64,000 nt of DNA from a virus (taxonomy: Duplodnaviria; Caudoviricetes): IMG/VR virus record IMGVR_UViG_3300010167_001484, positions 32,001-96,000 of that record. The stretch is one strand, 5' to 3'. How positions within the stretch are numbered: the stretch's first letter is position 1; each line of letters begins with the position of its first letter. Below the pieces are notes generated by a model that was not told where the DNA came from, ran no database searches, and was given only the letters and a program-made list of their open reading frames with translations. This document shows positions 18,796 to 57,318 of this stretch, piece by piece. Position numbers and translations under genes: made by a program.

Positions 18796-19737
18796 ATGAA
18801 TATTATAAAAGCTTCTGAAATTAAATTTAGTCCTCGTAATCTATACGGGGTTAAATATTATGTTACAAAAGAAAAGGACTCAGATAGTAGTAGATATTCT
18901 GTAGTCCAAAGAGAGGAATATGGTGATTACAAATTTTACATACGTATATGGGAGAATCATCAATGGGTATATCCTAGCGGACGTAGTTGGTGGACTGCTT
19001 GTGATGGTTTTCCAACACTCAAAGCTGCTGCACATTGGTTAAGTCAGCATGATTGGAAGAATGGCACATCTAATTTCATTGAAATGGATGAATCATTCAA
19101 TGAGAATTATAAGAAAGATTTCATAGAAGCTATGGAATTATTTGGATTTCAACGTACAGATGATCCTTTCTATGATAAAGATGATTTAGTATATGATTAT
19201 TCTGAAGATAAATCAGATAACATTTTAGATGGATATATCAGAATTAGAGTTCTGTATTATGAAGAAGGGCCTCATGTTACATATTGGATCAATGGGAAAC
19301 GAGTTCAAGAATATGAATCTCCTAATATTGAACAAATTATCCAACATATAGAAAAAACACTTAAGAAGTATGGATATAGTGATTTAATCAAGGCGGGATT
19401 AGTTCCTACATATAATCGTAGTAAAATAATGGCTGCGATCAATACGAGAAATCTTGCAGAAAATCTTATAAGAGTACGTTCTTCTAATTTGTGGTCTTAT
19501 TGTATTAATATTAAAAACTACGGCGACAGAAATGGTGATGTCTTAGTTCAGTACAAAGCTACTAATGGAGGGCCTGGAGATATATATATTTATTATGCAG
19601 TGCCAGTCAAGATTTGGAGAAAGTTTGTGTCTGCTCCAAGTAAAGGACACTTTGTATGGAAATATATACGAAATGTGTACCGTTACTCCAAGTTGACGGG
19701 GGATAAACGTGGTCGCTTACCCAATGCAATAAACTAA
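18796..19737 (+). CDS. KTSC domain-containing protein
   Basis: C-terminal VRSSNL.SY....LVQYK...IYIYYAVP..IWRKFVSAPSKG.F....IR..Y.Y. Confidence 0.7.
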   Translation: MNIIKASEIKFSPRNLYGVKYYVTKEKDSDSSRYSVVQREEYGDYKFYIRIWENHQWVYPSGRSWWTACDGFPTLKAAAHWLSQHDWKNGTSNFIEMDESFNENYKKDFIEAMELFGFQRTDDPFYDKDDLVYDYSEDKSDNILDGYIRIRVLYYEEGPHVTYWINGKRVQEYESPNIEQIIQHIEKTLKKYGYSDLIKAGLVPTYNRSKIMAAINTRNLAENLIRVRSSNLWSYCINIKNYGDRNGDVLVQYKATNGGPGDIYIYYAVPVKIWRKFVSAPSKGHFVWKYIRNVYRYSKLTGDKRGRLPNAIN

Positions 19738-19772
19738 TTTATAAATTAGTAAATATCAAGGATATAAATATT

Positions 19773-20798
19773 ATGCCTAAAATTTTAAATGAATCCGATG
19801 TAGATATATATAATATGTTTGCTTATATCTATAGAGTACATTATCCAACAGGTCATATGTATATAGGGGCAATTGCTGCGAAGAAATTTAATCCAAGATA
19901 TACAGGTTCTGGAGGTAGAAGGTTTCATGAAATTGATGATATCTATAAAGAAAGTGCTGAGATTGAGATTCTTGAAGTAATATATGAGCCGGATGGTCAT
20001 GATTTCAAGAATGAGCGTGAGAAGTATTGGATAGCATTTTATGGTGCACAGAATTCTGATGATTATTTGAATGTTAGACCTGGTGGGGAAGGAATTTGTT
20101 ATAAAGATTATATGACCGAAGAATCTATGAGACAGCGAGCTATTAATCAAGGTAATTCATTAAGACAATTTTATACAACTGCAGAAGGTAGACGTAAATT
20201 AGAAGAAAGGTCTGCTAAAATTCAAACATATTTTCAAACACCAGAAGGTATATTGTGTAAACAAATTATGTTAGAAAAGAATAAAGGTAGTAATAATCCT
20301 ATGTATGGCGTAAGTTTATCAGGTGAAAAGAATGGAATGTATGGTAAAAATCATACAGAAGAATCTAAGAAAAAGATATCAGATAATATTAAAGCACATT
20401 ATGCATCTCCAGAAGGTGTTGTAACAAAGGCGAGACTATCAGAAATAGCTAAATCTAGAAGTGTATCTGATGAACTCAGACAAAGATTATCTGATATGTA
20501 TACAGGACTTATACCTATGTATAAAGATGATGTAGAAATAAGAATATCTATTGATAATGTTGAGGAATATAAAAACTTAGGATTCCAAGAGGGTAGAAGT
20601 TCAAAAACTTTGAATAATATGTCTAAAGCTAAGAAAGGTAAAATAACTGTGAATGACGGTATTAATTATATCTATATTGATGTGTCTGAATTAACACTGT
20701 ATGAATCTAGAGGATACACTAGAGGTATACCAGAATCCGTAAGACAAGCTAGAAGAGATGGACATATTAGAAATAGAGCAGCTAAAGTTAATACATAG
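19773..20798 (+). CDS. GIY-YIG homing endonuclease with NUMOD3 repeats
   Basis: YIYR....MYIG, Y.GSG, REKYWI, YLN; GEKNGMYGKNHTEESKKKIS. Confidence 0.85.
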   Translation: MPKILNESDVDIYNMFAYIYRVHYPTGHMYIGAIAAKKFNPRYTGSGGRRFHEIDDIYKESAEIEILEVIYEPDGHDFKNEREKYWIAFYGAQNSDDYLNVRPGGEGICYKDYMTEESMRQRAINQGNSLRQFYTTAEGRRKLEERSAKIQTYFQTPEGILCKQIMLEKNKGSNNPMYGVSLSGEKNGMYGKNHTEESKKKISDNIKAHYASPEGVVTKARLSEIAKSRSVSDELRQRLSDMYTGLIPMYKDDVEIRISIDNVEEYKNLGFQEGRSSKTLNNMSKAKKGKITVNDGINYIYIDVSELTLYESRGYTRGIPESVRQARRDGHIRNRAAKVNT

Positions 20799-20811
20799 AA
20801 GGTGATGTATT

Positions 20812-21096
20812 ATGTTAACACCTTATTGGTTCAATAATATTAAATTAAATCAACCTAATTTGGGATTAACTGAGGAACAGTATAATGAAGGATTGTTAGG
20901 AACACGAAATATAGCTAAAATTCTGGATTTAACTCCTAGTACGGTTGCAAGATATTGCAGAAAGAAAATTATTAAAGCTTCTAGAAGTTTTTCGATTTCA
21001 TCTAATGGTTCGTGGCAAATCACACCTAAAGATTTACATATTATGATAAAGAAATATACTTATTTGGAGGAACAATATCGTGAAGAAGTTGATTAG
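20812..21096 (+). CDS. Helix-turn-helix DNA-binding protein (excisionase/MerR-like)
   Basis: LLGTRNIAKILDLTPSTVARYCRKKIIKA..GSWQI. Confidence 0.7.
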   Translation: MLTPYWFNNIKLNQPNLGLTEEQYNEGLLGTRNIAKILDLTPSTVARYCRKKIIKASRSFSISSNGSWQITPKDLHIMIKKYTYLEEQYREEVD

Positions 21097-55260: not shown

Positions 55261-55578
55261 ATGGCTAAGAAGGGCGTAAACGTGGATAGAATTGCTGAGT
55301 TGCTAGAAGGTTGTAAATTAGAGGAGGATATGTCCTGGGATAATTTCAATAGATGGGTAGCATCTTCAATTGGTAAAGATGTAACTGTTCAAGAATTTGT
55401 CTCAGAGGTTGAGAAGTTACGTGCGGATCTTGATGAGTGGATGAAAGTTGCTTGTAGATATGCAAATGAAGTTGATCGTCTTAAGCAGGAATTATCTATT
55501 GTAAAAGGTCGATATCAACAACTTGCAGATTATAATATCGATACAATAATAGAAAGTCATAAATTTAAGAAAACTTAG
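55261..55578 (+). CDS. Hypothetical coiled-coil protein
   Basis: RBS aaggag. Confidence 0.6.
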   Translation: MAKKGVNVDRIAELLEGCKLEEDMSWDNFNRWVASSIGKDVTVQEFVSEVEKLRADLDEWMKVACRYANEVDRLKQELSIVKGRYQQLADYNIDTIIESHKFKKT

Positions 55579-55598
55579 TTTTAAAATGTGGTGATTAT

Positions 55599-56132
55599 AT
55601 GATTGATTTAAATGAATTGAACGAAGAATTTAAAGTTGATATTGATTCTGTAACTAGTTGGTGCAACGAAATCTATTTAGATCAATTTGATGAATTCTTC
55701 GTTGATTATCGTGTGTTATTTAAGCGGTTAAAATCTAAAGAAAAATCTATAACAGATGAAGAATTAGCTCGGATATTGATAGATTTACCTATTCAATTAT
55801 TCGGTATAGCTGAAGCTTTAAATAAGTTTAAAATAAGTCAAGAAGTAGTTAAACTTAAAAATCGTCAACGTGAGTTAGAATTAATAAGGAATTCACTCAA
55901 ATCAACTGTTACAGATAGAAAACAAGATGCTACTGATAAGATGATAGAGTATAAATTACTTATCACTGCGTATTCAAGTATTATTGATAGAGTAACTAGT
56001 GAGATTAGTTTCTGTAGAGAACTTATAATGGGTGCTAAGAAGATTCATGATTCAAGATTAGCTGGAATTCGTTCTAATCCTGTATCAGAGGTAGATGAAA
56101 CTATGTTGCCGGATTATGTAGTAACTGATTAG
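55599..56132 (+). CDS. Helical hypothetical protein, possible recombination mediator
   Basis: Long helices, directly upstream of recA. Confidence 0.55.
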   Translation: MIDLNELNEEFKVDIDSVTSWCNEIYLDQFDEFFVDYRVLFKRLKSKEKSITDEELARILIDLPIQLFGIAEALNKFKISQEVVKLKNRQRELELIRNSLKSTVTDRKQDATDKMIEYKLLITAYSSIIDRVTSEISFCRELIMGAKKIHDSRLAGIRSNPVSEVDETMLPDYVVTD

Positions 56133-56142
56133 GAGGATTTTA

Positions 56143-57318
56143 GTGTCAAGTTATGCTGAGATTATAGAGAGAAAAAAGAAAGAATGGAATTCGGAGGGGT
56201 TAATGGATGGTGCAAGAGCTGAAAGGGGTCCAAAGATTCCTTTTAGTTCTCCTCTGATGAATTGGGCTACATACGGCGGCATACCTAGGAATAGAATATC
56301 AGAATTTATGGGGGACCCGGGGGGCGGCAAGTCGACAACGGCTGTAGATATTTGTAAAAATGCTGCTATAATATTCAAGAAAGAATTTGATGATAAAGTT
56401 AATATCGTTAGAGAAAAGATAGCTAAGAATAATAGAAAAGCTGAAGCAGAACTTGAAGATTTATTGGAACAAGGTCCCAGAAATGTTCTGTATATGGATT
56501 TAGAGAATGCATTTGATGGTCCCTGGTCTGAAACATTAGGTATAGATGCTAATAATAAGGGATTTCAGATAATGCAACCTCCTGATGTTGTTGCTGAGGA
56601 TGTATTACAAACTGTAGAAGAAATTATAAATACAGGAGAAGTTGGATTAATTGTATTAGATTCTGTACCATCGTTAGTACCTAGAGCTGAGTTAGAAAAG
56701 AAATATGGTGAAAGAACTGTTGCAGCATTAGCTGGTTTATTAACTATATTCACTCGTAAAATTGTACCTCAATTAACTCGATATAATACAACACTTTTAA
56801 TGATAAATCAAACTAGAGATAATCAAGATAATCCTTATGAAATTAAAACACCCGGAGGTAGAGCTCTCAAGTATTATTCCTCTTTACGTATATTTTTCAG
56901 AGTAGGTTATCCTGTTGATTTTCTTGGTAATGATCTTCCGATGAAAACTGATAATCCTTCTGGATATAAGATAAATGCAAAAATATTGAAGCAAAAAACA
57001 GCTCCTTGGAACAGGAAAGAGGCAACCTATTATCTGATGTGTGATAAGGGTATTGTACCTTTGTTCGATTACACTCAATTAGCTGTGAATAGGTATGGTG
57101 TGATCAAAAAACAAGGAGGTTGGTTCACAATTACTGACCCATTAACTGGTGAGATACTTGTGAATGATAAGAATCAAACAGTTAAGATGAATGGTTTAGC
57201 AAAGGTGTATCAATTTTTACAAGATACTCCTGAATATTATAAGAAATTACAATCATTTATTTTGGAAGATATTAATGGAAAACCTGGTGAAGCGGATATT
57301 GCAGAGGATTCAAATTGA
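56143..57318 (+). CDS. recA: RecA/UvsX recombinase
   Basis: GGIPRNRI.E..GDPGGGKST, YMDLEN, IVLDSV, INQ.R, TPGGRALKYYSSLR. Confidence 0.95.
   Translation: MSSYAEIIERKKKEWNSEGLMDGARAERGPKIPFSSPLMNWATYGGIPRNRISEFMGDPGGGKSTTAVDICKNAAIIFKKEFDDKVNIVREKIAKNNRKAEAELEDLLEQGPRNVLYMDLENAFDGPWSETLGIDANNKGFQIMQPPDVVAEDVLQTVEEIINTGEVGLIVLDSVPSLVPRAELEKKYGERTVAALAGLLTIFTRKIVPQLTRYNTTLLMINQTRDNQDNPYEIKTPGGRALKYYSSLRIFFRVGYPVDFLGNDLPMKTDNPSGYKINAKILKQKTAPWNRKEATYYLMCDKGIVPLFDYTQLAVNRYGVIKKQGGWFTITDPLTGEILVNDKNQTVKMNGLAKVYQFLQDTPEYYKKLQSFILEDINGKPGEADIAEDSN

Follow-up and report, generated by a model that had tools for sequence, protein, structure and literature searches.

Within the 214,046-bp phage record IMGVR_UViG_3300010167_001484 of IMG/VR, the stretch analysed here (bases 32001-96000, 64,000 nucleotides; hereafter the window) harbours short islands of G/C-ending synonymous codons in the genes for RecA, the helicase DnaB, a DnaX-like clamp loader and the polymerase PolA. 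These islands coincide with the points at which the same genes of related phages are interrupted by inteins or introns, and they do so independently of amino acid conservation and base context, over about six codons on either side of the insertion point. Comparison with relatives strongly supports the view that the islands map onto candidate target sites of homing elements, the footprint being seen at eight independent homing-site clusters in the four genes. It is further proposed, at about even confidence, that the islands may represent homing-endonuclease targets which have been recoded at wobble positions and selected for resistance to cleavage.

Coincidence of the islands with insertion sites

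The genome has a GC content of 33% (0.455, 0.364 and 0.186 at the first, second and third codon positions), and the preference for A/T-ending codons noted in the original prediction is borne out by a genome-wide GC content at third positions (GC3) of 18.6%. G/C-ending codons make up 7% of Asp codons (GAC), ~10-11% of those for Gly, Ser, Thr and Ala and 12% of those for Pro. Nearly all genes are held by one strand. The gene identities assigned earlier were confirmed by Pfam, namely DnaB, a Toprim primase, a class II ribonucleotide reductase (NrdJ, with a weak intein signal), the clamp loader, RecA and PolA, the last with an intein holding an HNH domain. A search of cultured phages revealed no close one, and scans with single-protein and exact-peptide patterns found no close relatives; relatives were reached only via protein alignment, which in the case of RecA gave more than 1000 of them at ~50-76% identity. 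Their DNA was represented by the closest RecA loci with flanks (L002-L004), by 69 IMG/VR loci and by 20-kb stretches around dnaB from 30 of the fetched IMG/VR records. Insertion points were found by mapping the proteins of the window onto this DNA, the sites being defined from relatives and independently of the codons of the window itself.

Every insertion cluster found in the RecA, DnaB, DnaX and PolA genes of relatives is covered or bordered by one of the patches originally pointed out. At a distance of <=6 codons from a site, 55 of 134 codons end in G or C where 20 are expected, while elsewhere in 20 genes the count (968 of 5,806) is close to the 933 expected (Fisher p 5e-11). GC3 amounts to 0.42-0.49 within 4 codons of a site and to 0.29 at 4-6 codons, and it is at baseline from 6-8 codons (~18 bp) on. 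A logistic model of 5,930 codons from the 20 genes, with amino-acid baseline, conservation, local GC content at the first two codon positions (GC12) and the next base as covariates, assigned an odds ratio (OR) of 4.6 to site proximity (<=6 codons; z 7.9, p 3e-15). In agreement with this, four of the six islands with z>=4 that an unbiased scan detected in RecA, DnaB, DnaX and PolA lie within 8 codons of a site (null mean 0.54, P 0.001).

The patches had been described as lying at conserved catalytic motifs, a link which proved to be only apparent. Neither conservation (OR 0.98) nor local GC12 is significant in the logistic model; GC3 away from the sites is flat at 0.15-0.18 in every conservation class, whereas near the sites it reaches 0.35-0.54 in every class. 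The “conserved catalytic motifs” are better described as homing sites that happen to sit in such motifs. Selection of rare-codon clusters for translation, either for accuracy at key residues or for a pause during co-translational folding, would be in line with the presence of islands in P-loops and polymerase motifs and with the rarity of G/C-ending codons in this genome. Nevertheless, other invariant motifs are devoid of islands (exo I and motif C of PolA are highly conserved, have no insertion in relatives and no island here), and the near-site codons include GGG, CCG, TCG and ACG, not just C-ending twofold codons. With the insertion sites set aside, G/C-ending codons are unrelated to conservation, nor are the positions kept G/C-rich in relatives (ratio 1.13). 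The link to translational accuracy is largely refuted by these three observations (conservation OR, flat GC3 by class and the ratio in relatives), and selection for translation as a whole seems highly improbable.

All 13 patches of the original prediction, the coordinates of which hold throughout, show an excess of G/C-ending codons after correction for each residue's genome-wide chance of a G/C-ending codon (post-hoc P 3e-8 to 0.04). Since these windows were picked by eye after the fact, the weakest four or five of them lie within chance on their own, and the patches in primase, at DnaX Walker A and at PolA motif B are individually indistinguishable from chance. An unbiased scan of 10-codon windows over all genes, evaluated against 100 within-gene synonymous shuffles, gave 20 islands at z>=5 versus 7.4 in the shuffles (shuffle maximum 15) and five at z>=6 versus 1.3. 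Minus-strand open reading frames (ORFs) of the simple gene call gave false GC3 peaks and were set aside, three of the 20 islands being artefacts of such spurious antisense ORFs. The true excess amounts to roughly ten islands, and the unbiased list is headed by RecA Walker A, PolA at 49297, KTSC, NrdJ, DnaB (twice) and again PolA.

The selection of windows by eye, the ~7 islands at z>=5 expected by chance and the weakness of the primase, DnaX Walker A and PolA motif B patches are what an explanation by chance plus reader selection, by a mutational effect of neighbouring bases or by a chimeric assembly at conserved k-mers could build on. The insertion sites, however, were defined independently from relatives and are associated with the islands at the p value given above. 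An effect of neighbouring bases was rejected, as GC3 is lower where local GC12 is higher and is also lower before G or C; the context effect being opposite in direction, Gly/Pro-rich P-loops do not explain the islands. As for the assembly, the RecA island is shared by L002, which comes from another metagenome, and a second, separate assembly contains identical RecA, PolA and HNH proteins in the same gene order. Such explanations are therefore considered extremely improbable. The context rule itself applies genome-wide, G/C-ending codons being less likely before a codon that starts with G or C (OR 0.57) and likelier before A.

Islands in RecA, DnaB, DnaX and PolA

All features given below in the form start..end are encoded on the plus strand of the window. 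The RecA Walker A island (56311..56340; codons 57-66, GDPGGGK|STT) has the empty intein site K63|S64 at its centre, and nine of its ten codons end in G or C against 1.24 expected (P 3e-8, z 7.6). A search for longer homologues revealed at least 24 RecA relatives in which a LAGLIDADG intein is inserted exactly after the Walker A Lys. The island is common to L002 only, 27 of its 30 bases being alike amid otherwise diverged silent sites.

A similar arrangement is found in DnaB, where the Walker A island (34498..34530; codons 178-188) is centred on the empty site K184|S185 (7/10 G/C-ending codons versus 1.43 expected, P 7e-5, z 5.5). In at least 50 relatives of DnaB, the Walker A Lys is immediately followed by an intein that starts with AQPL and ends with THN; among the 33 fetched relatives, four carry the 184|185 intein, and insertions were mapped at both 179|180 and 184|185. 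The Ser codon at position +1 is AGC here and TCT or TCA in most relatives. One and the same intein family (start AQPL...LTP, end THN, with LAGLIDADG) sits at the Walker A Lys|Ser/Thr junction in RecA (P0121-P0144) as well as in DnaB (P0148-P0208) of relatives, suggesting that it has moved between the P-loops of these two RecA-fold ATPases.

The DnaX gene contains two patches. The one at Walker A (54058..54090; codons 53-62) is weak (4/10 versus 1.4, P 0.04) and lies over the intein site K57|T58, at which 11 relatives have in-frame insertions. The one at Walker B (54232..54290; codons 111-129; 8/18 versus 2.9, P 4e-3) adjoins the 107-109 intein site, with in-frame insertions at 107|108 or 108|109 in 9-10 relatives. 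The lengths of the DnaX inserts are all multiples of three, hence these are inteins. No free-standing nuclease gene adjoins either DnaX or PolA.

In the case of PolA, insertion points of relatives were mapped to 412/413, 418-422, 765-779, 785, 839-848 and 1005-1017, in-frame inserts being mixed with those whose length is not a multiple of three. A search of 1.8 billion library representatives confirmed 412/413, 418, 766-770, 845-852 and 1005 and added 793. The island at 49300..49323 (codons 409-416), of which seven codons out of eight end in G or C (0.95 expected, P 2e-6, z 6.2), is centred on the empty 412/413 site, which is occupied in L044, L046, L049 and nine of the representatives, and abuts the resident intein at 418|419. 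This intein (49330..50304; C419 to N743, junctions read from the translation) matches Pfam Intein_splicing and HNH_3 and has a GC3 of 0.126, compared to 0.185 for the extein. The motif A island (50392..50422; codons 773-782; 6/10 versus 1.6, P 1e-3) is found near insertions of relatives at 765-768, 772, 776-779, 785 and 793, the insert of L031 in this region giving a weak group I intron match in Rfam. The island at motif B (50598..50625; codons 842-850) is weak (4/9 versus 1.3, P 0.03); 11 relatives have insertions at 839-848, mostly of lengths that are not multiples of 3. Three inserts in PolA of L018, one of them at 839-848, are group I introns (Rfam E 5e-11, 4e-7 and 4e-5). Finally, the 3' island (51070..51102; codons 999-1009; 7/11 versus 1.45, P 1e-4, z 5.3) covers the intein site 1005|1006 together with the intron sites 1008-1016, with insertions around 1005-1016 in 17 relatives and ~10 representatives. 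Two further islands, at codons 889-894 and 930-939, are individually strong and have no known insertion nearby.

At least eight different points of the PolA gene are interrupted in this clade, and a single gene may have as many as three or four inserts. Loci with many inserts include L018:1000-4500 as well as L011, L016, L030, L034, L035 and L099-L102, and in other relatives PolA contains inteins as well as introns, the latter with HNH or GIY-YIG genes inside.

Outside the window, the dCMP deaminase of the same record (G000:C1:14450-16114; L142) is interrupted by an HNH intein of 374 residues, which is inserted immediately ahead of the zinc-binding CH(A/S)E motif. Its extein codons +2 to +8 are all G/C-ending (7/7, z 6.6), while the GC3 of the intein is 0.116. 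Like NrdJ, the dCMP deaminase is too rare among relatives for a site test.

Selection, past occupancy and repair

According to the reading to which an even chance is given here, the targets would belong to the endonucleases of inteins, group I introns and free-standing HNH genes circulating in this phage clade; the inserts of relatives hold LAGLIDADG or HNH domains. Such enzymes would recognise ~20-40 bp of conserved coding sequence and, in a pool of AT-rich genes, would have become tolerant of the A/T-ending wobble variants that are common there. As both A- and T-ending variants are common in that pool, adaptation of this kind is probable, and only G/C would fall outside the tolerated set. 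Alleles that are cut would be converted to the element-bearing form; element-free alleles would survive if their recognition site had several of the rare G/C wobble bases, which selection would maintain against the AT mutation pressure of the genome. The confinement of the signal to ~+-6 codons corresponds to the size of an endonuclease recognition site and not to that of a conversion tract. We infer from this pattern both resistance to cleavage and which enzyme hits which site.

The original prediction took the islands for immunity scars marking endonuclease targets, and eight of the 13 patches do lie at insertion sites of relatives, whereas no site is known at the remaining five (DnaB at 34972, NrdJ, KTSC and the two in primase), for which the homing-target reading is only an extrapolation. 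The enzymes proposed earlier, those encoded by the neighbouring free-standing HNH genes, are not supported as the ones concerned, given that the P-loop inteins of relatives' RecA and DnaB carry LAGLIDADG and that L002 has the RecA island without the HNH gene. Self-protection against adjacent free-standing enzymes could still be the role of the islands at KTSC and at DnaB codons 336-354, or even of those at Walker A. As to CRISPR, likewise named as a possible agent, nothing seen needs it once the insertion sites are considered; no spacers were sought.

At empty sites of relatives the excess ratio is 1.13, or 1.24 in relatives with a GC3 <0.22 (p<0.001), and no excess is seen at occupied sites (1.06; 1.02 in AT-rich relatives). 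The near-site ratio of the window (2.75) is the extreme of a variable trait, most relatives being near 1. The change near the sites is almost purely synonymous, the differences being concentrated within the span of a recognition site and the protein being kept. At fourfold sites near insertion points, C and G are each up ~3-4-fold, towards a uniform base mix. The latter would also be produced by repeated double-strand breaks, if the repair spectrum (GC-biased conversion, error-prone synthesis) eroded the A/T bias without any selection, and an effect that is centred on break-prone sites and decays with distance fits this too. Repair, however, should leave its mark whether a site is occupied or not, and across lineages. 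What was found is a small excess in relatives, none at occupied sites (1.02-1.06), and an effect that is strong here but weak in the majority of relatives, which makes such a by-product distinctly unlikely.

The islands may also be scars of past occupancy, i.e. flanks that were co-converted together with inteins or introns from GC-richer donors and were left after precise loss of the element. The coincidence of islands and insertion sites is accommodated by this explanation as well. Moreover, the window is among the AT-richest members of its clade, in which imported flanks would stand out, it is in AT-rich relatives that the largest excess is seen, and two islands still adjoin resident inteins. 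Against this, the codons near the sites are no closer to those of occupied (identity 0.386) than to those of empty alleles (0.370), both values being under the background of 0.46 far from sites in the same genes. The GC3 of the islands (0.41-0.49 on average and 0.7-0.9 in the best) is above the near-site 0.30 of relatives, and the best islands exceed the gene-wide GC3 of any relative (maximum 0.47). Occupied flanks in AT-rich relatives have no excess, and the ~+-18 bp tract is much shorter than usual co-conversion tracts. Neither a donor-matching flank nor a long graded tract sharing the composition of the element was observed, the only partial likeness being that between RecA and the intein-bearing L109. 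No exact donor is present in IMG/VR, exact copies of the three strongest islands being absent from its 2.9 million viral contigs. They are likewise absent from the JGI metagenome contigs, a scan that also missed L002, which means that this collection does not cover L002. The lone match among genome_contigs was rejected, as it corresponds to an unrelated STAND-type P-loop protein of the high-GC actinobacterium Solirubrobacter, in which the same peptide is by chance encoded in GC-rich codons.

The resident inteins are informative in this respect. Those of PolA and dCMP deaminase (GC3 0.126 and 0.116) use A/T-ending codons even more than the genes that harbour them, and yet the extein codons adjoining each of them on a single side are G/C-ending in 7/8 or 7/7 cases. 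A/T-adapted inteins beside G/C islands indicate that the islands do not age together with the element, and the sharp boundary suggests that the flank is held by selection. For these reasons, scars of past occupancy seem unlikely, though less so than the products of repair. HNH enzymes may bind mostly one side of the insertion point, in which case insertion alone need not protect the carrier and one-sided islands would be expected. The HNH enzymes I-HmuI and I-HmuII, encoded in the DNA polymerase genes of phages SPO1 and SP82 and described by Goodrich-Blair and Shub in 1996, reportedly act on intron-containing DNA and recognise mainly one exon. Recognition of this kind would fit the one-sided islands beside resident HNH inteins, although I-HmuI and I-HmuII are intron-encoded nickases of Bacillus phages, whereas those considered here are predicted, intein-borne enzymes.

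Several observations weigh against selected, cleavage-resistant recoding. Besides the five patches for which no insertion site is known in the vicinity, two of the strongest islands are contiguous with occupied sites, so that an extra assumption (a neighbouring site or one-sided recognition by HNH enzymes) is needed. The contrast between empty and occupied sites among relatives is a trend and not a significant difference. Amino-acid divergence near the sites is not raised (OR 0.83, p 0.38), nor is the match to the consensus lowered. L002 has neither the HNH gene after recA nor the PolA intein and nevertheless shares the RecA island, a finding that does not conflict with immunity to the LAGLIDADG intein circulating in the clade. 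Sharing of island codons by nuclease-free relatives, which the original prediction regarded as telling against itself, is thus found at RecA; elsewhere it is not, the other islands being unshared with the nearest relatives. Three details fit a lineage that once held the elements, and hence scars: there is a partial likeness between the N-side of the RecA island and the N-extein flank of L109, the DnaB AGC codon is one base away from the ACC of occupied alleles and three from the common TCT, and PolA codons 414-418 are the same as the flank next to the insertion of L046.

Certain parallels to selected recoding exist in better known systems. In T-even phages, a genome that carries a free-standing endonuclease gene is spared because its own site differs in sequence. 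The sites at which these endonucleases cut are located in neighbouring conserved genes, at a distance of hundreds to thousands of bp from the endonuclease gene (PMC2988022). The presence of a free-standing nuclease gene beside a conserved gene resembles this intronless homing by seg and mob genes (PMC2988022; mobE, PMC2790892), but here multi-codon wobble recoding is found at predicted target sites in many loci of one genome, and most sites are intein or intron sites of relatives and not known targets of adjacent genes. The HNH-type intron endonuclease gp210 of the large phage PhiPA3 cuts gp178, a conserved replication or transcription gene of its competitor PhiKZ, and a cluster of 17 silent changes close to the target restored the PhiKZ titre 300-fold (PMC11620839). 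Unlike these engineered changes, the clusters described here are natural, occur at up to 13 places (eight beside known insertion sites) and have an effect that is predicted. In yeast, where homing endonucleases of the WHO elements and the conserved gene FBA1 are engaged in an arms race, FBA1 alleles each resist the adjacent WHO endonuclease, single synonymous changes giving resistance in 8/24 cases and being tolerated in 16/24; WHO elements replace the 3' part of the gene with a resistant copy, and amino acids are under positive selection (10.64898/2026.08.13.744650). In contrast to WHO and FBA1, collinearity is preserved throughout the genes of the window, almost all of the change is silent, and displaced fragments of genes were not noticed.

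Replisome ATPases with P-loop intein sites are also known from haloarchaea, in which MCM and PolB have several close intein sites per replication gene and empty alleles differ from occupied ones at the site (PMC10643990, PMC3024317). Endonucleases often tolerate single synonymous changes (PMC3024317), hence clusters of changes are needed. Wobble recoding sets the present case apart: the resistance of MCM-d consists of a +1 proline that blocks splicing, with no wobble recoding and no compositional island described (PMC10643990, PMC3024317).

It is already known that homing endonucleases target conserved motifs and that the homing cycle is predicted to pass through a stage of resistant alleles, and resistance in phages has been studied locus by locus. 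What is new, to our knowledge, is a multi-locus compositional footprint in a single phage genome, usable as a predictor of target sites. If the islands are resistant, conflict with selfish nucleases shapes the silent sites of essential phage genes, endonuclease targets can be predicted cheaply from a single sequence, and the natural recoded alleles are available for measuring how much wobble variation the enzymes tolerate. More generally, wobble recoding might be a selected means of self/non-self discrimination among phages living with many homing endonucleases; we regard this extension as possible, yet rather doubtful. If true, local departures from a genome's own codon bias (G/C in AT-rich, A/T in GC-rich genomes) would map present and past endonuclease targets, including those with no sampled element, i.e. 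NrdJ 746-755, KTSC 296-309, DnaB 336-354 and PolA 889-894 and 930-939.

Other islands and neighbouring genes

The nuclease genes reported behind dnaB, recA and the KTSC gene were recovered in part: Pfam detected HNH_3 and NUMOD4 in the genes right after dnaB and recA, but the putative GIY-YIG gene after KTSC matched NUMOD3 only. The free-standing endonuclease gene after recA spans 57315..57872. It has no counterpart behind recA in any fetched relative, its homologues being located elsewhere, e.g. after the clamp-loader gene.

The free-standing endonuclease gene between dnaB and primase (35341..36015) lies ~300 bp downstream of the second DnaB island (34972..35030; codons 336-354; 11/19 versus 3.1, P 3e-5). 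Neither the 33 relatives nor 61 longer homologues showed an insertion at this island. The genes dnaB and primase are immediate neighbours in most relatives, and homologous HNH genes occupy the gap between them in G021 and G032; codons 336-349 show a ratio of 1.40 in relatives with a large dnaB-primase gap versus 1.09, a weak trend. A Macro-domain protein is encoded at 36343-36921, between the HNH gene and primase, and a 500-600-nt gap in some relatives may hold its counterpart. The two primase patches (37482..37518, codons 58-68, 6/10, post-hoc P 8e-4, z 4.7; 38050..38108, codons 247-265, 9/18, post-hoc P 5e-4) are within the range of chance, and no insertions were found in the primase matches of the 37 relatives' records having one.

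The NrdJ island (42401..42430; codons 746-755) is located in the TSCPD domain and has no known site (8/10 versus 1.6, P 7e-6, z 5.6); NrdJ is present in only three of 33 relatives, too few for a neighbouring-site test. The same gene contains a resident mini-intein of 133 residues (40922..41320; C253 to N385), which gave weak Intein_splicing matches and has no endonuclease domain. Its flanks are only mildly G/C-enriched, and the NrdJ of G031 lacks residues 253-383.

The island at the 3' end of the KTSC gene (19681..19722; codons 296-309; 8/14 versus 2.25, P 4e-4, z 6.0) is situated 50-90 bp upstream of the gene for the NUMOD3-motif protein (19773..20798), a putative free-standing endonuclease in which neither GIY-YIG nor any other catalytic domain was detected by Pfam. 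The KTSC domain is kept in 30 relatives, in which the codons at the 3' end are only moderately different. None of these 30 has a nuclease gene or a homologue of the NUMOD3 gene beside KTSC, the latter gene being unique to this genome.

Some additional patches were noticed. A strong island (44619-44648; z 5.5, GVKFILPDDV) lies near the start of a 273-residue gene (44568-45389). At 4470-4499, a run of eight glycines alternates between GGC and GGT (z 5.0), which may prevent a simple repeat and has nothing to do with homing sites. Outside the window, the Walker A motif (GAGTGKTH) of a UvrD-like helicase (G000:C1:204551-206143; L143) is also a G/C-ending island (z 4.7). An 891-residue protein (G000:C1:177696-180371; L144:1697-4372) has an HNH intein that ends before a Walker A-like GKT motif, the N-extein flank being mildly G/C-enriched.

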